Source: Escherichia phage Ec_MI-02. From it: a stretch of DNA of 64,000 nucleotides. The notes under the pieces are model-generated. The model was given only the letters and a program-made list of their open reading frames with translations. It was not told where the DNA came from and did no database searches. The stretch lies in sequence record OP856590.1; one strand, 5' to 3'. Position 1 is the stretch's first letter. Each line of letters opens with the position of its first letter. The position numbers and the translations under genes are program-made. Shown here piece after piece: positions 4,587 to 21,586 of the stretch.

Positions 4587-4872
4587 CAATCATATCCTCA
4601 ATCTGCGATCTAGTAGTCTTCCAAAGAATACTAATGAGTTCATCGTTATATGGCTGTTTTAAAATATCCCGACTTTTCTTGATAGCATATTCGTATTGAG
4701 CGAAATTATTGTTTTCAGCTGCAATCTGAGCGTGCTTATAAAGACGATTCAGTTCGCGTTTGTTTTTAGACAATAACTTATTTGCTTTTCTTTCTGCTTC
4801 AAGACGGTTCTTTTCTTCAATAGAAGAAATAAGCTTTTCCACTTCATCATTAATTTCGGGTTTATCAGTCAT
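4555..4872 (-). CDS. Hypothetical protein, predicted helical/coiled coil
   Basis: 105-aa ORF with ATG start, charged heptad-like sequence. Confidence 0.55.
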   Translation of the reverse strand: MTDKPEINDEVEKLISSIEEKNRLEAERKANKLLSKNKRELNRLYKHAQIAAENNNFAQYEYAIKKSRDILKQPYNDELISILWKTTRSQIEDMIDAYTRKIQAS

Positions 4873-4873
4873 A

Positions 4874-5092
4874 TTATTTCTCTAATATAAAATAAAAATC
4901 ATCATCTGTTAAATGATACCGATAGTTTAATTCTACACCATTAGATTTAAAAGCGGTATCATACGGATTTTCTGGATCAATATCAATGTCAAGAGCTAAA
5001 ACTTCCCTGAGATACATTTTAAGTAAATAGGGAATAGCTTCAACTTCAGGTATTTCTTCCAAGAATCCGGAGAGGTTAATCGTTAGCCTCAT
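4874..5092 (-). CDS. Hypothetical acidic protein
   Basis: 72-aa ORF, ATG start, overlaps gene 55 stop by 17 nt. Confidence 0.5.
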
Positions 5093-5633
5093 ATAAAAAA
5101 TCCAAACTAGGAGAATCGTCTACAACACTTTTCTTTTCAGCCCCCGGTGTTCTATAGGTTGATTCTTCGTAATGCGTCATTTTATCGTAGATGTCTTGAA
5201 TAAAAGTTTCATCCACTAACGCAACCATATCGTCGTCACGACTGTCATAGACATTGTGAACGAAGTAACTGTATTTCTTTGCAACTTCCTTACGTTCTTT
5301 TTTAATACGTTGGACGAATGCATTAAAACAAGCTTGAGTTATATATGCATGTGGGTTTTTATATTTCGTTTCATCAAAATTATGAAGCCCCTTAATAGAA
5401 GCTTCTATACCATCTGCAATCATTTCTTGTTTCCAAGATTGGGTGTATCCTGAAAAGTTGAAACGTTTAGATAAGCCTTCTGCAATAAGCATAATGGCTA
5501 ATCCGATAGTATCATTCTGACGAACTACTTTATTTGGGTCTTTATTATTTGCTAATTCTGTTTTCCAATCAATAATAGCTTGTAAAAGCTCTTTATTGTT
5601 TACGTAATTATATTTAGGCTTAGTTTCTGACAT
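5076..5633 (-). CDS. 55: Late-transcription sigma factor gp55
   Basis: ORF track starts at GTG 5639; ATG at 5633 gives 185 aa [35 protein letters not shown]..., matching T4 gp55 length and sequence as recalled. Confidence 0.95.
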
Positions 5634-5711
5634 TTTCACCTCTTAGCTCAATTCATAGATCTATTATATCATAATATTTGAAGATCTATCTTAAAGCATA
5701 GAGGATATCAG

Positions 5712-5981
5712 TTATCTAAGTAAGCAGTATGCTTGGAACACTTTCTCCATCATCTTTTTAAATTCATGAATATCTATATAATGACTAGTTAAATCAGCAT
5801 GATATAAAAAATCTAAAAACTTTTCATGCGTGCTAACATATTCGCTTTCATTTAATTCAGAAACATGGCTTTCCCAATATCCAACACCAGTCTTATTTGG
5901 GAAAAATGAAATTTTCATATATTGATCAACATAGAAAATGCCATAATTTTCAATAGTAATAGAAATATTAATAAATTTCAT
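5712..5981 (-). CDS. Hypothetical protein
   Basis: 89-aa ORF, ATG start, stop/start overlap with the next gene. Confidence 0.5.
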   Translation of the reverse strand: MKFINISITIENYGIFYVDQYMKISFFPNKTGVGYWESHVSELNESEYVSTHEKFLDFLYHADLTSHYIDIHEFKKMMEKVFQAYCLLR

Positions 5982-6199
5982 GCATTCATCAACTTAGCCG
6001 CTTCAAGAGCTGCATCTAGTGAATCAAACTGGTCAACGTATTCAATCAACTCGCCATAATTAGCGTATAACCACCATTGGCTAAATTCATACTCAAGGAT
6101 GAATCCATTTCCTTCAATTTGAGTTAAGCCAATGCCATTTGTATTTACTTCATATCCGGCAAGACGCAAATCGTTAATAAGAGCTTCGTTCATATTCAT
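5978..6199 (-). CDS. Hypothetical acidic protein
   Basis: 73-aa ORF, ATG start, ATGA overlap with upstream gene. Confidence 0.5.
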   Translation of the reverse strand: MNMNEALINDLRLAGYEVNTNGIGLTQIEGNGFILEYEFSQWWLYANYGELIEYVDQFDSLDAALEAAKLMNA

Positions 6200-6522
6200 A
6201 CCTTAGCAATTTTCAGGTCAGCAAATTTTTTCTTGCGTTGATTTTTCATACGACGAATAGTTTTATCGGAAATTTCATGCTTTTGATAAGCTTTAGATTC
6301 TACACCAAAAGCTTTAACATCAAATTCTGACAAGATATATTGAACCAACAATTCACGGACAGTATTGCGCCCAATTTTCTGATCATTCTGTTTCATCGTC
6401 TGATGAAGCTCTTTTTCCCATTTATCCAAAATTTGAGGAGTTACAATATCGCCTTTTTCTAGCAAAGAAACTACTTTATCATATGCATAAGAATTGATGG
6501 CGTTTTTAATTTGAATAGTCAT
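6196..6522 (-). CDS. Hypothetical basic protein
   Basis: 108-aa ORF, ATG start; lysine/arginine-rich C-terminus. Confidence 0.55.
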   Translation of the reverse strand: MTIQIKNAINSYAYDKVVSLLEKGDIVTPQILDKWEKELHQTMKQNDQKIGRNTVRELLVQYILSEFDVKAFGVESKAYQKHEISDKTIRRMKNQRKKKFADLKIAKV

Positions 6523-6555
6523 ACATTATCCTCAATTACATTAAAATTTTATTAT

Positions 6556-6577
6556 CCAAAAAGGGCCGAAGCCCTTA
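6556..6577 (-). terminator. Rho-independent terminator (UUCG hairpin plus U-run)
   Basis: Minus-strand AAGGGC-UUCG-GCCCUU followed by UUUUGG; directly after the stop of the 6575..6775 ORF. Confidence 0.55.
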
Positions 6578-6775
6578 GCTAAACTTTTTGGCACCCTTCC
6601 AGCCTTCGTACATCATTGCGGCTGATATTAATATTGCTCCTGAGCAACTTGAATATTTGTGATTCCAAAACCAGTTTAGAAAAATTTCGTCATCAATACC
6701 TTGGGCTATCATATTTTCAAAGAACTGACGACGAGCTTCAGCAATTCGTTGCGATAATTTAGATTCAGGATTCAT
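6575..6775 (-). CDS. Hypothetical protein
   Basis: 66-aa ORF with ATG start. Confidence 0.45.
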   Translation of the reverse strand: MNPESKLSQRIAEARRQFFENMIAQGIDDEIFLNWFWNHKYSSCSGAILISAAMMYEGWKGAKKFS

Positions 6776-6907
6776 TTAAATTTTCCAGTTACCATTTTCA
6801 TCAATAAATTTAATCCAGTCATTTACTGACCACTTGGTCGTATCGCCCTTTGGAGCAACATTTAAAGTGTATAATCCTTGTTTAAAAAGCATGCGTTTGA
6901 TATTCAT
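6776..6907 (-). CDS. Hypothetical small protein
   Basis: ORF track 6776..6991 starts with TTG and overlaps the next gene; ATG at 6907 has a strong RBS (GAGGAAAAT-ATG) giving 43 aa. In-frame ATGs at 6988/6985 are alternative starts. Confidence 0.4.
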   Translation of the reverse strand: MNIKRMLFKQGLYTLNVAPKGDTTKWSVNDWIKFIDENGNWKI

Positions 6908-12546: not shown

Positions 12547-12867
12547 TTATAGCGTAATCCATTCTCGTATTGTCTGAGTTACTACACGTTCATGGGGCTC
12601 GACTAGTTCAACAGTCGGAACTGCATAATACCAGTCAGAATGGTAAGAACCTGAGCGAGTTTCATTTACAGACACATGAACGTTATGTTTTGGACTAAAA
12701 TAAACACACTGACGATATTGGCATTTGCCATCTTGTACCCAATCTTCTATTTCGACAGGTTTAAGATAATCCGAAAAATCGAAATCATAATTTTCTGAAA
12801 ATCCATCATGGTCTTCGATGATTTCGCTCAGAACTGCATCAACATCTAATTTATTTTCAATATTCAT
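12547..12867 (-). CDS. Hypothetical acidic protein
   Basis: 106-aa ORF with ATG start. Confidence 0.55.
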   Translation of the reverse strand: MNIENKLDVDAVLSEIIEDHDGFSENYDFDFSDYLKPVEIEDWVQDGKCQYRQCVYFSPKHNVHVSVNETRSGSYHSDWYYAVPTVELVEPHERVVTQTIREWITL

Positions 12868-13087: not shown

Positions 13088-13266
13088 TTAGAAATAGACT
13101 TTTCACCATTAGAATAATAAACTTCGAGTTTAGCGCGGCCATTTTTAATTTGAATAACCTTTGCTGTCATCAAAGTTCCATATCCATAATAAACTGCAAC
13201 CTCATCACCTACATATACCGCGCTTCCGCGGTAGTCATGGATATAATCAGTTCTTTCGAGCATCAT
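13051..13266 (-). CDS. Hypothetical small protein
   Basis: 71-aa ORF, ATG start, start overlaps nrdC stop. Confidence 0.45.
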   Translation of the reverse strand: MMLERTDYIHDYRGSAVYVGDEVAVYYGYGTLMTAKVIQIKNGRAKLEVYYSNGEKSISKWKYGDCMVKLG

Positions 13267-13526
13267 TTAAAGTATTCCCGCAATTGATCAAATCCACCAA
13301 TATGACTTCCATCAGGAGCAAATACTTGTGGCATTGTCAAACCAATTTGAGTATCACGACCTAGTTTCGTCAGAAGCTCAGCGATTTTCTCATCATCAAA
13401 AACACCTTTTTCCGGCATAATATTGATAAATTCAAACGGCTGTTTCTTCACAGTCAAAAGACGTTTTGCATTATCGCAATACACACATTTGTGGATGTTG
13501 CTATCATAACCATATACTTTAAACAT
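13263..13526 (-). CDS. nrdC: Phage thioredoxin/glutaredoxin
   Basis: 87 aa MFKVYGYDSNIHKCVYCDNAKRLL... with CVYC active site; matches T4 NrdC as recalled. Confidence 0.95.
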   Translation of the reverse strand: MFKVYGYDSNIHKCVYCDNAKRLLTVKKQPFEFINIMPEKGVFDDEKIAELLTKLGRDTQIGLTMPQVFAPDGSHIGGFDQLREYFK

Positions 13527-13527
13527 A

Positions 13528-13770
13528 TTATTCCTTAATTCCTAGTACTTGTTTAAAAGTCTCGTCGTAATCAAGACTTTGGCCCGTTTGTTCTTTATGT
13601 TTGTATATAATATCACTTACTTCTGATAGCATATTTTTATATGAACGAGTTAAAGCAGATTTAAGCACGCTGTATCTATCAGGAAATTTACCATGTTCAT
13701 TATAATACGCTATTGCTAATTCACGGACTGCCTTTTCAGCAGTCTCCATATATTCTTTACGCTTTGTCAT
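13528..13770 (-). CDS. Hypothetical protein
   Basis: 80-aa ORF, ATG start, tightly packed after the upstream gene. Confidence 0.5.
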
Positions 13771-14074
13771 TTTCTTCTCGGTTAAATCGGTGTTTGCAAT
13801 GACGGCATTTATAACGAAGAATACTAGTCTGCCAATGAATTAATTGAACCTGTTCAGTACCGCATTCAGGGCAATTAGGAACGTTTTTAGAAGCCCTTTC
13901 GCGACGTTCAACCATAGCCATAATAGCATCCCATGCTGGAGGTTTAAAATCTAAATCGTCACAACCATGAATCTTTCCACGCATTTCCAGATCGTCTTCT
14001 TCACCAGCCATAATAATTTTAATTAGACTGGAATTACTTGAAGCTGCAATATCTTCTAATAAGCGCTTTTTCAT
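13757..14074 (-). CDS. Hypothetical zinc-ribbon protein
   Basis: 105 aa; C-terminal CPECG...(17 aa)...CRHCKH four-cysteine zinc-ribbon motif. Confidence 0.55.
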
Positions 14075-15000
14075 TTCAATACCTCAATAGCATTACGTAA
14101 ACCATTTGCTTTTGCATTAAGAGCTTTTAACAATTTGGTGTGTTCGGCAATCTGGGCTTCAACTTCAATTAAACGAGCATTGAGATATTCACGTTCTTCG
14201 CTCAGGTTATCAACCTTTTCTACTTTAGGTTCTTTTACAACTGGCTTATACGTATTAGGGTTCTTCAGTTTAATTAGAATGCGTGAGCTGTATAACATTG
14301 AACCATTATCTTCGGTTTCATCATACATTTCCACTACGTCCATAATTTTTAACATCATGCGAAGTTTATAAGACAACGAACGAATAGTTTTGTTGTGCTT
14401 ATTAATTTCTTTAGCTGTCATGGTGCCGAGATTACGTGAGTAATAATAAGGAACCTGGATATTAATTAATACTGATGAACCACCTGGCTTGTGTGTTACT
14501 TCATCAGCAATAACCCAATCCTTAACATGAACTGTATTTGTACGGTCATCGCCTGCGGTAAATAGTTTGCGAGCATGCTTAAAAAGCATATTCACTTGGG
14601 TATTGAATTGACAAGCAAATTTATCAGCAAATTTAGTTTCAGGAATGGTAGATAACCAATCAGCTAAATGGGTCTTTTTAACATCGTTAACAATAGTAAA
14701 TTCAACCAAATCGGTTATAGATGTCGCAGATTTAATGAAGCTCGGCTTCATAAAGTTTTTAATGTTATCGTGAGCTACAGTAGAAGATAACATACGAGAA
14801 CGTTTAAACCATTCAAGCAAATTGCCTAACGAATGAGAATAAGCGTTTTGAGTATCTTTACAGATATGATTTTCCTGGCCAACATATTGAAGGAAATCAC
14901 GAAGAATATTATTGATTACTGCTCTGTGTCCGATCTGATAATTACGGTGTTTAGTAATAAGACTGTCAAAATAATCAATATAATGTTTACGAGTTTTCAT
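14071..15000 (-). CDS. Hypothetical protein with C-terminal coiled coil
   Basis: 309 aa; C-terminal heptad segment [41 protein letters not shown]. Confidence 0.65.
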   Translation of the reverse strand: MKTRKHYIDYFDSLITKHRNYQIGHRAVINNILRDFLQYVGQENHICKDTQNAYSHSLGNLLEWFKRSRMLSSTVAHDNIKNFMKPSFIKSATSITDLVEFTIVNDVKKTHLADWLSTIPETKFADKFACQFNTQVNMLFKHARKLFTAGDDRTNTVHVKDWVIADEVTHKPGGSSVLINIQVPYYYSRNLGTMTAKEINKHNKTIRSLSYKLRMMLKIMDVVEMYDETEDNGSMLYSSRILIKLKNPNTYKPVVKEPKVEKVDNLSEEREYLNARLIEVEAQIAEHTKLLKALNAKANGLRNAIEVLK

Positions 15001-15052
15001 GTTCTTCTCACTTGGTTAATGATTTATACTCCGAGCCATCCTTGGCTTTAAA

Positions 15053-16054
15053 TTACTTAATTAATTGTAAAGCTTGTTCAAGACGATCCAGGCGATTAAC
15101 AGATTCTTCCCAAATCTTTTTAGCCTGCTCATATTCTTTCTGCGCTTTATTAGAAATTTCTAGAACTTCCTTATAAGCTTTTTCTAATGCAATAACTTCT
15201 GAACGAATTTCTACTGGTTCAGGTGAATCATCAAGATTATCCATTAGTTCCTCAAGGGTAGTTTCTTCTTTAGGAGTATTCACAATTTCATCACATTTTT
15301 GTTGGTAAATTTCTTTATCAGTCGGTGAGTACGCACACTTTACTTCACGGAGACTAACTACAATTTTATATCCTTCCCAACCGCATATATTCTTAAAAGG
15401 ATAAGTATGAATATTTTCTACTGTTTCCATACAAAGTAATGCAGTCTCTAATTGACGAGTTATATCGCTAGCAATTGAGAAAAATTTATTGATGTTCTTT
15501 TGATTAGCTTCTGGTGTAAAAAATTCATAATTCACAAAAATAGCTGCTTTATTTTTATCAAGTTCATATTCTTTTATGATAATCATATCAGAAGCCCAAG
15601 GATGAATTTGACGATAATCGCCATAGCATAATTTAGAAGCTGATTTTAGAATTTGCTTTTTGAAAAGTCTGAAATTACTAATCCAACGACGAGTAAAAAT
15701 ATTATCAGGATCTTCTTTAATATTACGATGATATGAATTAACATCACCGAACCAATTATATCCTACTACATCTTTAGTTCGTTTAATTTCTTTCCCAAAT
15801 TTACCGAGAATATCTTGATTAACTAAATATGAAAGAAGACGAGACCTTTTAAAGGTTTCCTTAATATCATCTTTATATTCGCGACTAGAAATTTTATGAA
15901 CTTCATGAATAAATTTGCTTGAAGAAACAATACTTGCATCAGTATTATTGAGCCACTGATTGATAATAGAAAGAACACTATTCTGACTAGACATAGGTTT
16001 AACTTTATCATCAATAACGCTATTGAATGATTTGATATATTCGTTACGAGTCAT
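15053..16054 (-). CDS. Hypothetical protein, coiled-coil C-terminus, paralog of 16112..17134
   Basis: ORF track starts at TTG 16105; ATG at 16054 with GGAG RBS gives 333 aa; shares a FRxxxKQILxSASxL block with the next gene. Confidence 0.7.
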   Translation of the reverse strand: MTRNEYIKSFNSVIDDKVKPMSSQNSVLSIINQWLNNTDASIVSSSKFIHEVHKISSREYKDDIKETFKRSRLLSYLVNQDILGKFGKEIKRTKDVVGYNWFGDVNSYHRNIKEDPDNIFTRRWISNFRLFKKQILKSASKLCYGDYRQIHPWASDMIIIKEYELDKNKAAIFVNYEFFTPEANQKNINKFFSIASDITRQLETALLCMETVENIHTYPFKNICGWEGYKIVVSLREVKCAYSPTDKEIYQQKCDEIVNTPKEETTLEELMDNLDDSPEPVEIRSEVIALEKAYKEVLEISNKAQKEYEQAKKIWEESVNRLDRLEQALQLIK

Positions 16055-16082
16055 ATTAATCTCCTCAGTAGAAAGTAAGAAC

Positions 16083-16112
16083 ATTATACCACATCCTTGT
16101 GGCAAAGTAAAC
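16083..16112 (-). promoter_or_regulatory. T4-type early promoter
   Basis: Minus strand GTTTACT-17 bp-TGG TATAAT, upstream of the ATG at 16054. Confidence 0.55.
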
Positions 16113-17134
16113 TAGTTCAGTGCATTTAGTGCATTGTTCAGTTTAGAACGTTGCTTTGTCAGATTTTGAACCCTTGACTGAGCTTGTTCTAACACCTTTT
16201 CAGCTTCTAGCACTTCATTGGTCGCTTTAACGAGTTCATCATCTACTGCCTTAAGAGACTTCTTAATCGCGTCAGCGTGCCATTTTTCTACAGGTTTAAA
16301 ATTTGAATTTTCAGTAGGAAGAAAACTCACTTTATTAAGTTTACATGCATCTATATTGCTTGAGCTATACATCCAAAATTTAGGATCGTTTGATGAGTAA
16401 TTGGATAAATTTAAGTTATCTTGCACTTCCTGCTTTTTCTCTTGCGGGATTTCGTCCTTTCTCAAAAAATCGTATTTAAATGAAACGATCATATCAAGTT
16501 CATATGTTGTTGTGTCTAATTTAAATCGCTCAAAACGAGGTAAAATCTTAGACTGAACAGCGGCAACAACATCCATATACTTAAATGCTTCTGTCAACTG
16601 CGATTTAAGGCATTCGCAAATTGAAAGAGAATTTTTTGTATTAGGTTTAAAGCTAATTCGCGCAGTTCTGTTATTTTCTTTTAATGGTCTTACTTCCATC
16701 TGAAGAGTATAACCATCAAATTTCAGGTTCTTTAAGTTAATGTCAGAACCTTTTAATCGACTAGCAGTCGACAAAATTTGCTTTAATTGTCTACGGAACA
16801 GAGCAATAAATCTCCATTCAATACGATAATGATTTGGATTGAAAAATCCAGATGATAAATCGACCTTACTTTGACCAACGCCTTGAACAAATAGAGGATT
16901 TTTATAATCAATAGTTTTACAGAAATCTGTGAGCTGCTCACGAGCAGTCATTTGTGTAATATACCCCGCTTTACTAAAATTACTCACCCATTCACTGCTA
17001 TTTAGATATTTAAAGTGATGAATAGCACGATTAACTTTATCAGGGTCTAAATTATTTTCACACAAAAATGTCATAACATTACGAGTATCGCTGGCAGTAC
17101 GAACCATATCTTCAATTTGAGAACGAGTTTTCAT
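16112..17134 (-). CDS. Hypothetical protein, coiled-coil C-terminus, paralog of 15053..16054
   Basis: 340 aa, ATG start; C-terminal heptads (EAEKVLEQAQSRVQNLTKQRSKLNNALNALN). Confidence 0.7.
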   Translation of the reverse strand: MKTRSQIEDMVRTASDTRNVMTFLCENNLDPDKVNRAIHHFKYLNSSEWVSNFSKAGYITQMTAREQLTDFCKTIDYKNPLFVQGVGQSKVDLSSGFFNPNHYRIEWRFIALFRRQLKQILSTASRLKGSDINLKNLKFDGYTLQMEVRPLKENNRTARISFKPNTKNSLSICECLKSQLTEAFKYMDVVAAVQSKILPRFERFKLDTTTYELDMIVSFKYDFLRKDEIPQEKKQEVQDNLNLSNYSSNDPKFWMYSSSNIDACKLNKVSFLPTENSNFKPVEKWHADAIKKSLKAVDDELVKATNEVLEAEKVLEQAQSRVQNLTKQRSKLNNALNALN

Positions 17135-17142
17135 GGTGTTCC

Positions 17143-18033
17143 TTAAGATTTAAGTAAATCAATAATTTTAATTAACTTTTCACGCTCAGATTTAGCTTTA
17201 CTACTCAATCCAGATAGTCTGAAAATTTCATCATCATATTGTTGAATGGAAATATTCAGCTCTTCAATCTGTTTATTAAAATAATCAATTTGTTCAGAAT
17301 GTTTTTCGTTACTACGAACTGGTACAGGTTTTGTAGGCAATTTAGTTGAACTGGATTCATCCGGGCGATAAATTAAAATACAACTTGAACCAATAGGGCA
17401 TTTTGCACCAGATGAATATTCTAATGTTCCAGCTTCTTTTAAAACTTCAAAAGCTAAACAGAGATGATGACCCATATTGACATAATCTGTAGAGTGAGCT
17501 CTGATGTAATAATCAATGCCACGAGTACTAAATTTAAAGCATTTAAGGTCTTCTGTATTATTGGTCTTAAAAATCATTTGTTTATCTAGACCTTTAGCTA
17601 ATCGAGCGCCTAATGCTAATAATCGTCGTTGATTTTCCCACAAATCCGCAATCATTTGATCGAATGATAATTTTGGCATTAGTCGACCATAAAGGTCATA
17701 TCCTTTATTATAATTACGAAGGATTTCACTCGCGTTAATACGAGACAATGCTCCAATTTTATTAAGGGCTTTCATAATGCGATTAGATAAACTCATTCCA
17801 GACCCATTTGTTCGCTGCAAATGTTTTTCTAATCCAAATCCAATATCAACTTTAAACTTATCTAAAATTTCTGCATGAACATCTCTGTCAATAACATTCA
17901 AATCCAAAGTTGGGTTAAATCTATGAAAAAATTTATCCGGCTCTCCACGGCGAAATACAGTCCATTCATTCATCATTTTTTTATTAACTAAAGATTTAAT
18001 TACTGCATTGACATTATTAATTACTACTGACAT
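17143..18033 (-). CDS. Hypothetical protein, coiled-coil C-terminus
   Basis: ORF track starts at TTG 18048; ATG at 18033 with GAGGAAAA RBS gives 296 aa. Confidence 0.65.
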   Translation of the reverse strand: MSVVINNVNAVIKSLVNKKMMNEWTVFRRGEPDKFFHRFNPTLDLNVIDRDVHAEILDKFKVDIGFGLEKHLQRTNGSGMSLSNRIMKALNKIGALSRINASEILRNYNKGYDLYGRLMPKLSFDQMIADLWENQRRLLALGARLAKGLDKQMIFKTNNTEDLKCFKFSTRGIDYYIRAHSTDYVNMGHHLCLAFEVLKEAGTLEYSSGAKCPIGSSCILIYRPDESSSTKLPTKPVPVRSNEKHSEQIDYFNKQIEELNISIQQYDDEIFRLSGLSSKAKSEREKLIKIIDLLKS

Positions 18034-18040
18034 ATTTTCC

Positions 18041-18442
18041 TCACTCAATTTTACTAATTACGCGAAATAAGATTGAACAGACTATATAAGTACCGCATAT
18101 AGACTGAACTAATGCCATTCCAAAGAACCAAATAATATTATCAAACCATGTCTGTTTTACGTCGAAAGGACGTAAACTTACAGTAATATTATCACCTTTT
18201 TCTATTGAAGAATACATCTCTGGGGAAATATATTCACTAAATCTATAACCGTCTTTGAGTTCATATACGGCAATAAACGATAAACTAGACCCTTTTCCTT
18301 GTGTTCCTGTAATGGTATTAACTACAGTAACATCATAATCTTTATAATGCATATAATCATTAATTGCGTAATAACCATATGCAATTACTACACATAAACA
18401 ACATATCAATAAATTCAATCTTTTAATTATCAACTGTTTCAT
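18041..18442 (-). CDS. Hypothetical membrane protein
   Basis: 133 aa, ATG start; hydrophobic N- and C-terminal segments. Confidence 0.6.
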   Translation of the reverse strand: MKQLIIKRLNLLICCLCVVIAYGYYAINDYMHYKDYDVTVVNTITGTQGKGSSLSFIAVYELKDGYRFSEYISPEMYSSIEKGDNITVSLRPFDVKQTWFDNIIWFFGMALVQSICGTYIVCSILFRVISKIE

Positions 18443-18497
18443 AATAATCTCAATTAAAAGGGCTTAGAACCATTATACCATCCTTGGTATAAAGCGG

Positions 18498-19025
18498 TTA
18501 TGCGAGTACCGTCTTTAACCGTTCTTCAAACTTCCGAAGAGTATTTTGGCGTTCAGCTCTTTGCTTTTTGTAAGTTTCAATACGCTCTGAAATGAGAGTG
18601 TATCGTTCATTTACTGATTCTTTCATAAAATCAGGAATTTGACGAGAAGCTTTAATCTCGTCAAATTTATCAATAACAGCTTGCTCTTCAGCAATTAAGT
18701 TATCATACATTAAAATATCTTTCTTGATGAACTCAATATCTTCTTGAGTTACACGAGATAATTTAGATGCTTTATCCTTTTTGTACTGTTCGTTAGTATC
18801 ACGAGACCAGTGTAATGTACGATTTTTATTCGTATTCTTATAAATTTCTACAATACCAATCTCATCAATAATAACGATCCAATTCCAACGGGATTTGTAA
18901 ATTTGTCCTCCATCAACAGTGATTTCACCTCCGATTGAGATGTCATTAAAGAACTTGCTTTGTGCTTCAGATTTAAATTTACCATCGTTGTAATTTACCA
19001 AGTTGAAAATATCTTTAGCGTTCAT
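18498..19025 (-). CDS. Hypothetical protein
   Basis: 175 aa, ATG start, downstream of the early promoter at 19054..19084. Confidence 0.65.
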   Translation of the reverse strand: MNAKDIFNLVNYNDGKFKSEAQSKFFNDISIGGEITVDGGQIYKSRWNWIVIIDEIGIVEIYKNTNKNRTLHWSRDTNEQYKKDKASKLSRVTQEDIEFIKKDILMYDNLIAEEQAVIDKFDEIKASRQIPDFMKESVNERYTLISERIETYKKQRAERQNTLRKFEERLKTVLA

Positions 19026-19053
19026 TTTCTGTTCCTCCGTAGTTGATAGTTGT

Positions 19054-19084
19054 ATAGTACCACAGAGGAACAGTCTTGTAAACC
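19054..19084 (-). promoter_or_regulatory. T4-type early promoter
   Basis: Minus strand GGTTTACA-17 bp-TGG TACTAT. Confidence 0.55.
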
Positions 19085-19085
19085 A

Positions 19086-19400
19086 CTAAAAGAAACTTCT
19101 TTCACAATTTTTTCCACTGAACCAGGCGCTCACTGCTTTCTTGGTCTCAGGAGCAGTGTTATCCATAAACCATTCAAAGGCAGCCTTTTTATGATTCTGG
19201 AGGGCTTCTCGGGCTTTAATCTGCTCACGGTCTATTAACACTAACATATGAGCCTTTCTTGTCACCATGGGCTTCTTATGATTTTTTGAATACTCCCAGT
19301 CATTTGTCCATCGCATTGTTGTTGCGAACTGAAATACTGCTTCTTTAATTTTAGTTTCGTAAATTTCACGAGCCTTTGAGTATAACATCACTACCTCCAT
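19086..19400 (-). CDS. Hypothetical protein
   Basis: 104-aa ORF with ATG start. Confidence 0.55.
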   Translation of the reverse strand: MEVVMLYSKAREIYETKIKEAVFQFATTMRWTNDWEYSKNHKKPMVTRKAHMLVLIDREQIKAREALQNHKKAAFEWFMDNTAPETKKAVSAWFSGKNCERSFF

Positions 19401-19489
19401 TCATCAGTTTAATTCTAGTCATCTTTTTAATGGCAGTCCATATAATCTATTTCTGAACTGCCTTTTTGTCATAGAAGTCCTCTTATGAA

Positions 19490-20458
19490 TTATTTCAAAA
19501 GAGTAACCTCAGCAATTTCTTCCCAACCGTTTTTGTCGGTCATAATAAAGTCAGCAAGATAAAGAGCAGTACGCAGTGAAACATTGCGTAAACGATTAAC
19601 ATTAACTTTCATCCATGATAATGCTTTATAAGTTTCTTCATCAGAAAGACCGCGCTTTTGCATCATGTCAGTTGAAAGAATAACATCTTCAACCCTGACC
19701 ATAATTTCTTCATTAGTGTGAACACCCAAATCTAAATAAACCGAGCGGGACACTAATGCTTGTAAATGTGGAGCAAGTTTAGTACCACGGTCTAATTCGC
19801 GGTCAATGTCAACGTTTGTGATAAAAACAATCGTTCCTTTAAATTCAAACTCACGCTCAATGCCTTTTTCTTCTAAGTAAGAAGACGCAGTGCTCCAGCA
19901 GACTTTACGGGTCTCTCCAGTGTCCAGAGCGGCTTTTAGAAGATTAAGAATGTCCATATCAGAGAAAACATCTACATCATCAATCAAAAGGACAGAATTC
20001 TCTTCACGATTATTCCAAAGCTGCTCATAAAGACCAATACCAGAGATTTTACCATTAATGCTTTTATATTCAATGTATCCAATATCATTTGCTTTATTTA
20101 AAGCTTTATCTAAAGAATACGTTTTACCAATACCTGCTGCGCCAGAGATAATTAATGAACGAATATTTCCGTTAATAATACCATTCGTCATCATTCCCAT
20201 AACATTAAATCTTTTATTAATGCGGGTTTTCATATCTTCATATGATTCTTTAACTTCTTCAACTTTTACACCATCATATGAAATATCTGATTTGTAAACC
20301 CAAACACCGCGACGTTTACCGTCAATTTCAACAAAAACTTTACCATCTCCTTGTGCATCTACCGGAGCATTATCTGGGAACCATTCGCCTAAGAGCTCAA
20401 AAGTTCCAGAGATTTCTTTACCGAAGTAGATACCCTTATTGATAGTTACAGTTTTCAT
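19490..20458 (-). CDS. P-loop ATPase (AAA-like) of unknown function
   Basis: Walker A GAAGIGKT and Walker B VLLIDDVD; ORF track starts at TTG 20470, ATG at 20458 with GGAGA RBS gives 322 aa. Confidence 0.8.
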   Translation of the reverse strand: MKTVTINKGIYFGKEISGTFELLGEWFPDNAPVDAQGDGKVFVEIDGKRRGVWVYKSDISYDGVKVEEVKESYEDMKTRINKRFNVMGMMTNGIINGNIRSLIISGAAGIGKTYSLDKALNKANDIGYIEYKSINGKISGIGLYEQLWNNREENSVLLIDDVDVFSDMDILNLLKAALDTGETRKVCWSTASSYLEEKGIEREFEFKGTIVFITNVDIDRELDRGTKLAPHLQALVSRSVYLDLGVHTNEEIMVRVEDVILSTDMMQKRGLSDEETYKALSWMKVNVNRLRNVSLRTALYLADFIMTDKNGWEEIAEVTLLK

Positions 20459-20492
20459 TTTATTCTCCAAATCCGTATCAGTTGATAGTTGT

Positions 20493-20523
20493 ATAGTACC
20501 ATAAAGCTTTATGCTTGTAAACC
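20493..20523 (-). promoter_or_regulatory. T4-type early promoter
   Basis: Minus strand GGTTTACA-17 bp-TGG TACTAT upstream of the ATPase gene. Confidence 0.55.
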
Positions 20524-20544: not shown

Positions 20545-20570
20545 ATAAAAAAGGGAGCCCGAAGGCTCCC
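20545..20570 (-). terminator. Rho-independent terminator
   Basis: Minus strand GGGAGCC-UUCG-GGCUCCC followed by UUUUUU, directly after the stop of the 20573..21586 gene. Confidence 0.7.
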
Positions 20571-20572
20571 TA

Positions 20573-21586
20573 TCATTTATAATAACTTCGATGGTTTTCA
20601 AGATAAACCCTCTCAAGGAAGTCATCCCAGAAACCCATGTCTACTTTTTGCTGCATACCGTTCTTAGAAGCTTCAATGGATGCTGCTTCTACTTGATCGA
20701 CCACATCTTCCAAAAACTCTTGAACAGTTTTAAATGGATGTTTACCCAACTTCACGTCGAGAATAAATGGAGCGTCTTGAAGTGGATAGACTAAGTCACC
20801 AGTTTTGTAAATTTCCAATAGTTGGAGTCCACCACGGCAAGCATGACTCAGAGCTTTCCAGTCAATGCCCTCATTCGCTTCAGCCTTACGAGCACGTTCG
20901 CCGTATTCAGCATCAAGTTTATTCAAAGACTGCTTAAGCTCAATAAGAGAAAGCGTTGTTTGATATTTACGACCCAACACAGTGTAGAACGTTTGTGGAC
21001 CTGTTTTCTCATGATTATGGAATACCCATTCACAGAATTCGTTCTCTGGAAGACGATGCTTAATATCTTCAACTTTAGTTCGACGCTGCTTAATGGAACC
21101 GTCTTCTTGGTAATCAACCCATTGCTCAGGGATTTGATTAACTACTTTCAACACATCACGTAATGCGGCCAAACGAGAACCCTTAACACCGTATTTAGAA
21201 GCTTGCTTGCGAACATATCCTAAGTAGGATTTCATGTTGGTCGTATAAAAACGAGAACGATTGTCTTGAATAAACTTCCATACATCAGGCAAATCAGATT
21301 TAACTACTAGTTCCGGTGGAGTGTGGAGCATATCCAATGCTACAGTTTCACCATCTGCTGCTAATTTAAAGAAATACTTAAGACTGTATAGTTCATGGTC
21401 AATATCATCTTTAGTGTTTTTAGATGATGTGTTGTTAGTGTTTTTACTCATATGCTCTTTAACATTTCCGATAAGAATATCGCGAGCACGAGGAACAAAG
21501 ATTTCTTTAAAATCTACATCAGATTCTGGAGTAGAAGTTCCATAAAGATGACTACCAAAATAGCTTTTCATTACTGTTTTCATCAT
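20573..21586 (-). CDS. Predicted nucleotidyltransferase (Pol-beta superfamily motif)
   Basis: 337 aa; N-terminal FGSHLYGTSTPESDVDF fits the G[SG]x9-13Dx[DE] minimal nucleotidyltransferase signature. Confidence 0.7.
   Translation of the reverse strand: MMKTVMKSYFGSHLYGTSTPESDVDFKEIFVPRARDILIGNVKEHMSKNTNNTSSKNTKDDIDHELYSLKYFFKLAADGETVALDMLHTPPELVVKSDLPDVWKFIQDNRSRFYTTNMKSYLGYVRKQASKYGVKGSRLAALRDVLKVVNQIPEQWVDYQEDGSIKQRRTKVEDIKHRLPENEFCEWVFHNHEKTGPQTFYTVLGRKYQTTLSLIELKQSLNKLDAEYGERARKAEANEGIDWKALSHACRGGLQLLEIYKTGDLVYPLQDAPFILDVKLGKHPFKTVQEFLEDVVDQVEAASIEASKNGMQQKVDMGFWDDFLERVYLENHRSYYK

Follow-up and report, generated by a model that had tools for sequence, protein, structure and literature searches.

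Phage T4 carries an experimentally supported inhibitor of a SIR2 defense protein among its early genes. A T4 deletion mutant fails to plate on ECOR17 and likewise on MG1655 with the ECOR17 dsr1 gene, and T4 nrdC.5 expressed from a plasmid restores plating of that mutant on Escherichia coli with dsr1 (Srikant 2022, PMC9391042). According to a 2026 preprint (PMC12803255), the phage major capsid protein triggers E. coli Dsr1, whose TPR sensor is shared with Avs7. A literature search returned nothing on the mechanism of NrdC.5, or on phenotypes of nrdC.3, nrdC.4 and nrdC.6, beyond Srikant 2022 and essentiality tables. The same four genes form a tandem array in a 64,000-nucleotide stretch of Escherichia phage Ec_MI-02 (OP856590.1), the whole of which is called the window here. 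The reading favored with moderate confidence is that nrdC.3 to nrdC.6 are tandem paralogs that have diverged within one small family of T4-like phages, that they are non-essential early accessory genes within an anti-defense stretch, and that their products would act as inhibitors. Neither the genes themselves nor the function of NrdC.5 is new. What appears to be new is the uniting of PHROG 1435, 2351 and 2257 and of PF26897, PF23882 and PF26899 as one superfamily with a common modular design, and the naming of NrdC.3, NrdC.4 and NrdC.6 as candidate anti-defense proteins.

The window belongs to a Tequatrovirus (T4-like) genome. Positions 13200-20500 share 98% identity with Shigella phage pSs-1 and match 758 phage records, nearly all of them from enterobacterial T4-like phages, and the open reading frame (ORF) at 13263-13526 encodes a product identical to the T4 NrdC thioredoxin. 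The four ORFs of the array are present exactly where the original prediction placed them, on the minus strand (Table 1). They are adjacent and co-oriented, with a spacer of 8 bp between nrdC.6 and nrdC.5, and sit in the interval from nrdC to nrdC.11, sharing the strand of these early-region genes. Their names are taken from the Shfl2 and T4 records. The product of nrdC.3 matches PHROG 1435 with an expectation value (E) of 1e-116, and the precomputed Pfam label of NrdC.4 in the source database is PF26897. NrdC.5 is a member of Pfam DUF7235 (PF23882), scoring 398.8 bits against a curated cut-off of 30, and is 93% identical to T4 NrdC.5 over its full length, with the same position and strand. A Pfam scan gave no DUF7235 match for NrdC.3, NrdC.4 or NrdC.6 at E up to 1, so membership of this Pfam family is confined to NrdC.5. 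Many GenBank records label these ORFs thioredoxin, a label inherited from the gene-name prefix "nrdC."; it is rejected here, as none of the four products has a thioredoxin-fold Pfam match.

Judged by their sequence profiles, NrdC.3, NrdC.4 and NrdC.5 almost certainly belong to one family. BLASTP across all pairs is significant for NrdC.3 and NrdC.4 only (E 4e-7, at 23% identity across a 270-residue stretch of the globular part), and both of these proteins fall in PHROG 1435; NrdC.4 and NrdC.5 align at a non-significant E of 0.5. Profiles were therefore needed, and family alignments were assembled from database homologs and from the loci of T4, VR7, JK45, RB69 and IME08. With hhalign, NrdC.3 and NrdC.4 match with a probability of 98.3% over their full length and of 98.3% again once the coiled coil is removed. 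The corresponding values for NrdC.4 and NrdC.5 are 94% (E 1e-7) and 90.4%, which means that these proteins share more than a generic coiled coil. The original prediction held that at least two of the four are paralogs. Paralogy in fact reaches further, to NrdC.3, NrdC.4 and NrdC.5 by profiles and likely to NrdC.6 by structure, and the clearest pair is NrdC.3 and NrdC.4 rather than the middle pair, NrdC.4 and NrdC.5, that had been singled out.

The block that had been picked out in the middle pair is real: FRLFKKQILKSASKL and FRRQLKQILSTASRL are identical at 9 of 15 residues and stand in register in the hhalign alignment. No other helix of the family is as well conserved, and the block falls within helices 119-142 of the NrdC.4 model. 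A hidden Markov model (HMM) of the block, with the signature F..F.....IL...A.+L, matches NrdC.3, NrdC.4 and NrdC.5 at E 1e-18 to 1e-21. Within the superfamily alignment F128 never varies, and R123, I135 and A139 hardly do (NrdC.4 numbering). Moreover, gp080 of Klebsiella phage Marfa, a single-copy homolog, matches the HMMs of NrdC.3, NrdC.4 and NrdC.5 alike.

NrdC.6 probably belongs to the same superfamily, mainly by virtue of its modeled structure, the support from sequence being weak. Structure prediction had been proposed as a check, and AlphaFold2 models of NrdC.4 and NrdC.6 (predicted local distance difference test scores of 83.7 and 79.1, respectively), read side by side, show the same order of elements: a helix pair, a beta hairpin, a helix, a second beta hairpin, a disordered linker and a long C-terminal helix. 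The comparison of element order rests on these two models. A Foldseek search of BFVD with the NrdC.4 model retrieves NrdC.6 of phage JS10 at E 1.9e-5 (probability 1.00, template modeling scores 0.40/0.46), and the NrdC.4 and NrdC.6 models match the same proteins of IME523 (Enterobacter), PM2 (Pectobacterium) and Acj9 (Acinetobacter) at E 1e-4 to 1e-7. The Kanagawavirus gp085 family (IME523-type) aligns to NrdC.6 with an hhalign probability of 95% and to NrdC.4 with one of 15%. In Acinetobacter phage Acj61, the BFVD entry E5E4A1 is matched by the NrdC.4 model and E5E4A2 by the NrdC.6 model; these consecutive accessions suggest neighboring genes, and Acj61 may therefore hold a tandem pair of the family.

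Profile comparisons place NrdC.6 less firmly. Against any single family hhalign gives it a probability of at most 38% over the full length and below 2% with the coiled coil removed. Against a merged profile of NrdC.3, NrdC.4 and NrdC.5 the NrdC.6 family reaches P 9e-4 and a probability of 23%, which rises to 47-60% when the secondary structure of the models is supplied; two motifs stand in register in the alignment. The block HMM built from NrdC.3, NrdC.4 and NrdC.5 misses NrdC.6 when run against the 135 ORFs of the window, so the resemblance of its block that can be seen by eye has no statistical support of its own. The NrdC.6 block does align to that of NrdC.4 by hhalign and to that of Kanagawavirus gp085 by both HMM and hhalign, and it is nearly unchanged within the NrdC.6 family, with invariant columns from N134 to A146. 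A natural recombinant also joins the two branches. Salmonella phage Manna encodes an in-frame hybrid (4715-5752) of NrdC.6 residues 1-269 and NrdC.4 residues 251-333, and the join is a stretch common to both genes, GATGAAATT, which encodes the peptide QQxxDEI.

The original prediction had all four proteins ending in heptad-repeat coiled coils. This was assessed with a home-made heptad a/d score against 200 shuffles, rather than with COILS or MARCOIL. The score is at its maximum at the C-terminus, and the claim stands for NrdC.3 (p=0.005), NrdC.5 (p=0.005) and NrdC.6 (p=0.01); it fails for NrdC.4, whose score is not above shuffles (p=0.17). What all four share is a long C-terminal helix. In the AlphaFold2 model of NrdC.4, residues 285-332 form one unbroken helix behind a low-confidence linker, and in that of NrdC.6 two helices, residues 243-272 and 277-295, are separated by a short break. 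The helix closes with a motif, L..[AIV][ILVM].[LVAI][LI][KN], that, of the 135 window ORFs with 60 residues or more, ends only these four. Because the pattern was derived post hoc from the four, their own matches are uninformative and only its absence elsewhere counts. The motif recurs in distant relatives that were found independently, namely P0228 (...KLKNALFALK), P0234 (...KLLRAIQALK) and P0236 (...ALVNAIKEFK).

A heptad-like terminal helix (shuffle p=0.045) and a loosely similar end (...FEERLKTVLA) are also present in the 175-residue product of nrdC.8 (18498-19025). Its inclusion as a fifth member is rejected, with hhalign probabilities below 2%.

The family was found only in T4-like phages (Straboviridae and relatives), without a cellular homolog to suggest a function. 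No more than 15 matches came out of an exhaustive HMM search through 1.84 billion representative proteins, so the family is small, and the matches traced by tblastn come from T4-like phages of Klebsiella, Enterobacter, Kosakonia and Edwardsiella. Distant T4-like genera, Kanagawavirus included, hold one full-length copy, which in those genera directly adjoins a homolog of nrdC.2; the four-copy array is therefore a Tequatrovirus expansion. A check of presence and absence across T4-like phages, as the original prediction had proposed, shows that the copy set varies by genus and that natural deletions occur. T4 has nrdC.3, nrdC.4, nrdC.5 and nrdC.6; VR7 has nrdC.4, nrdC.5 and nrdC.6; IME08 has nrdC.4, an nrdC.5-like gene and nrdC.6; and RB69 and JK45 have nrdC.3, an nrdC.5-like gene and nrdC.6. 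ACG-C40 lacks nrdC.3, nrdC.4 and nrdC.5, of which a 71-residue NrdC.5 stub and the NrdC.3 tail remain (5305-5716), and Pinarejo lacks nrdC.6, of which only the tail is left (5439-5652). Cluster P0120 is a fusion of NrdC.5 to NrdC.3.

Individual copies have also been altered in other ways. NrdC.6 of Shigella phage Sf25 (P0121, 378 residues) contains an internal tandem duplication of ~82 residues before the coiled coil, in which IRAHSTDYVNMGHH...FNKQIEEL occurs twice. The RB69 gene annotated as nrdC.5 (5974-6876) matches its JK45 counterpart (5476-6435) over residues 1-237 and then continues into an unrelated non-helical tail; the RB69 protein looks frameshifted, hence without a coiled coil. The T4 reference NC_000866 annotates NrdC.6 (4603-5430) as a protein of 275 residues that departs after residue 259 and has no C-terminal coiled coil. 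In the T4 annotation on which HIDEN-SEQ drew, nrdC.6 has 891 nt (296 residues), and tblastn on T4 record U76612 takes two pieces, and the short form in NC_000866 is probably a frameshift or sequencing error. For nrdC.4, alternative upstream starts would extend the ORF to 15053-16105: an ATG at 16084 gives 343 residues, as in some records, and a TTG lies at 16105. A promoter-like -10 box at about 16083-16088 would favor the 333-residue form starting at 16054. A promoter scan of the region gave no more matches in total than shuffled sequence did, so no claim is made about transcription units.

The four genes differ in how they have diverged. NrdC.3 occurs in three allele classes, represented by this window and RB14, by RB69 and JK45, and by T4, T2 and T6. 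The window protein is 61% identical to T4 NrdC.3, with termini at 80-100% and a middle at 25-55%. Synonymous divergence (dS) between the window and T4 is about 1.07 for nrdC.3 and 0.07-0.35 for neighboring genes; the divergence of nrdC.3 thus points to exchange of an old allele and not to fast evolution. In the same pairwise comparison, the ratio of nonsynonymous to synonymous divergence (dN/dS) is 0.21-0.29 for nrdC.3, nrdC.4 and nrdC.5, 0-0.14 for most neighbors and 0.20 for nrdC.7.

The original prediction placed the array among host-interaction or exclusion functions, and this reading is supported: for NrdC.5 the role is established by the T4 experiment, and for NrdC.3, NrdC.4 and NrdC.6 it is inferred from homology, non-essentiality, context and variation in presence. 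The tables of the HIDEN-SEQ supplement (10.1101/2025.11.20.689424) list nrdC.3, nrdC.4, nrdC.5 and nrdC.6 as non-essential in T4. As for context, a homolog of gp49.2, a published OLD inhibitor, is encoded at 12547-12867 (93% identity), 1.2 kb from the array, and a homolog of NrdC.1, a published Septu inhibitor, at 13528-13770 (100% identity), 0.3 kb away. Together with NrdC.5, this makes three experimentally supported counter-defense genes within about 4.6 kb.

These observations suggest a common design, consisting of a variable N-terminal helical part, an alpha/beta core, a flexible linker and a C-terminal helix of ~50 residues. The predicted core would run helix pair, beta hairpin, helix, beta hairpin and bear the conserved helix of the F..F.....IL...A.+L signature, and the end of the C-terminal helix would be conserved as L..A(I/L)..L(K/N). 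Each paralog may bind and stoichiometrically inhibit a host immune sensor or effector of its own, with target specificity supplied by the variable core. The C-terminal helix could serve oligomerization, and hence avidity, or possibly a common docking function. NrdC.5, made early, would probably occupy Dsr1, so that the TPR sensor could no longer be triggered by the late major capsid protein.

Several results weigh against this interpretation. Among the four, an experimental phenotype exists for NrdC.5 only, and direct binding of Dsr1 is the present authors' inference about a mechanism that is unpublished. The main text of the HIDEN-SEQ study reports nrdC.1 and alt and does not report nrdC.3, nrdC.4 or nrdC.6 as hits, and one condition in its supplement gives q=1 for all four genes (10.1101/2025.11.20.689424). 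PADLOC returns only a coiled-coil-type match to BrxC at E 0.0012; searching PDB sequences with the superfamily profile turns up nothing below E 0.1; and Pfam scans of 47 aligned members give DUF7235 and sub-threshold noise, with no informative or tail-terminator family. Positive selection is not supported, as every dN/dS is <0.3 and never >1, and nrdC.6, at 0.04, looks more like an accessory gene conserved in the manner of a housekeeping gene than like one in an arms race. To these are added the weak heptad signal of NrdC.4, and the low profile probability of NrdC.6 and its absence from the block HMM matches.

Other explanations account for part of the same evidence. Foldseek also lists tail terminators of Arthrobacter phages, at E about 0.09, and bacterial sensors that recognize whole structural-protein folds have been reported, Avs15 for the tail terminator and Dsr1 and Avs7 for the capsid protein (PMC12803255). 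The core might accordingly derive from, or mimic, a virion neck or tail-terminator-type protein, so that the proteins act as inert early decoys occupying fold-recognizing TPR sensors of the Dsr1/Avs type. The family has no sequence link to any tail-terminator Pfam family, and self-mimicry of this kind is unlikely. Its fuller version, in which a tail-terminator-like virion fold was exapted and diversified into oligomerized early decoys, each blinding a different sensor, as a general counter-defense by structural self-mimicry, is a bolder proposal and rather less likely still. The C-terminal helices invite another explanation, namely that the paralogs hetero-oligomerize through them into one machine with a single function, of which the anti-Dsr1 effect is one read-out. 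The conserved end motif and long helix common to all four would fit such an assembly, as would the adjacency and common orientation of the genes and the 8-bp spacer. Natural subsets speak against it, since VR7 does without nrdC.3, RB69 without nrdC.4, ACG-C40 without nrdC.3, nrdC.4 and nrdC.5, and Pinarejo without nrdC.6, and distant T4-like genera hold a single copy. The paralogs also evolve at very different rates, and plasmid-borne nrdC.5 alone rescued the deletion phage, whose deletion may have taken in other paralogs as well. A single machine is accordingly doubtful, to much the same degree as the fuller decoy proposal.

The least probable of the alternatives is that the genes are not concerned with defense at all and have a host-takeover or nucleic-acid role, for example as regulators associated with DNA or RNA polymerase, with NrdC.5 affecting Dsr1 indirectly. 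Matches of NrdC.3 to the SAM-like N-terminal domain of phage integrases (E 0.069) and of NrdC.5 to Cas6b_C (E 0.074), together with the strong conservation of NrdC.6, are in keeping with such a role. On the other hand, all of these domain matches fall under curated thresholds, the genes are not needed in the laboratory host and are deleted in natural isolates, and their sole known phenotype is defense-specific.

Among lytic phages T4 has been studied best, and even so no function is known for three of these four large early genes. If nrdC.3, nrdC.4 and nrdC.6 encode paralogs of the anti-Dsr1 factor NrdC.5, as preferred here, they provide three concrete candidates for new immune inhibitors. A modular design in which targets are chosen by a variable core and the C-terminal helix is conserved would be testable, and would explain why natural phages swap, delete and hybridize these genes. 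Such work would also aid host-range prediction for therapeutic T4-like phages and could reveal the defense systems that the paralogs target.

Table 1. Features of the nrdC.3-nrdC.6 array (window coordinates)
Feature	Coordinates	Strand	Basis and remarks
nrdC.3, 309 aa	14071..15000	-	ORF call and annotation; family member, central domain hypervariable among phages
nrdC.4, 333 aa	15053..16054	-	ORF call; PHROG 1435, E 8e-163; family member, best-modeled copy
nrdC.5, 340 aa	16112..17134	-	Pfam DUF7235; ortholog of T4 anti-Dsr1 factor
nrdC.6, 296 aa	17143..18033	-	PHROG 2257 and PF26899; probable, most distant member, tied in mainly by predicted structure
NrdC.3 C-terminal coiled-coil helix	14074..14208	-	Heptad scan p=0.005; end motif
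NrdC.4 C-terminal long helix, ends ...RLEQALQLIK	15056..15202	-	Model helix 285-332; heptad score weak
NrdC.5 C-terminal coiled-coil helix, ends ...KLNNALNALN	16115..16279	-	Heptad p=0.005; tail kept in distant Marfa and IME523 homologs
NrdC.6 C-terminal helices, end ...KLIKIIDLLKS	17146..17307	-	Model helices 243-272 and 277-295; heptad p=0.01
NrdC.3 signature helix pair, residues 128-152, FACQFNTQVNMLFKHARKLFTAGDD	14545..14619	-	Block HMM E 5e-18
NrdC.4 signature helix pair, residues 124-147, WISNFRLFKKQILKSASKLCYGDY	15614..15685	-	Model helices 119-130 and 132-142
NrdC.5 signature helix pair, residues 109-132, FIALFRRQLKQILSTASRLKGSDI	16739..16810	-	hhalign, in register with NrdC.4 block
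NrdC.6 putative equivalent helix pair, residues 128-151, IADLWENQRRLLALGARLAKGLDK	17581..17652	-	Model helices 124-133 and 135-145
Sigma-70-like promoter match TTTACT-17-TATAAT with TG	16083..16111	-	nrdC.5/nrdC.4 spacer; 10/12 consensus matches; suggestive

Further genes of the same accessory region lie beside the array. The product of nrdC.10 (19490-20470) has sub-threshold matches to AAA_14 (E 6e-5) and nSTAND3 (E 5e-4), and nrdC.11 (20576-21583) is annotated as a nucleotidyltransferase in T4. Between these two genes the window has a perfect GC-rich palindromic hairpin, AGGGAGCC CGAA GGCTCCCT (20552-20571), followed on the minus strand by a T-run and a promoter-like site (20521-20493); the region is probably a boundary formed by a terminator and an early promoter. 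In ACG-C40 the same interval holds an extra ModB-like ADP-ribosyltransferase gene (888-1373), followed by a DUF4031 gene, and in Manna an unannotated gene (1673-2158) has the same 486-bp length and place. Both insertions are absent from this window and from T4.

The array is most directly comparable to T4 itself. NrdC.5 of the window is an ortholog of the T4 anti-Dsr1 factor of DUF7235 (Srikant 2022) and shows no substantive difference from it, whereas NrdC.3, NrdC.4 and NrdC.6 are filed in PHROG 1435/2257 and PF26897/PF26899 and are tied to it through profile comparison and structure only. DSAD1 is a functional analogue, being a phage protein that allows escape from the SIR2 NADase DSR2, whose sensor recognizes a virion protein (PMC10981675, PMC11087589). 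It differs in phage group and target, DSR2 sensing the tail tube and Dsr1 the capsid protein.

Tail terminators (lambda gpU, T5 p142, SPP1 gp17-like proteins, DUF3168) share no sequence similarity with the NrdC proteins in Pfam and PDB sequence searches. The NrdC proteins differ from them in their length of 300-340 residues, their extra N-terminal helices and their ~50-residue C-terminal helix, and the genes sit among early accessory genes rather than in the tail module and are non-essential. The Foldseek scores of the tail-terminator matches lie within the range where unrelated alpha/beta sandwiches appear too. The counter-defense islands of T4, with gp49.2 (anti-OLD), NrdC.1 (anti-Septu) and TifA/Dmd/AdfA (anti-toxin), have both neighborhood and logic in common with the array: small non-essential early genes, variable among relatives, each neutralizing one host system. 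The genes of those islands are unrelated, single-copy and small, whereas the array consists of four tandem members of one family, each of 300-340 residues.

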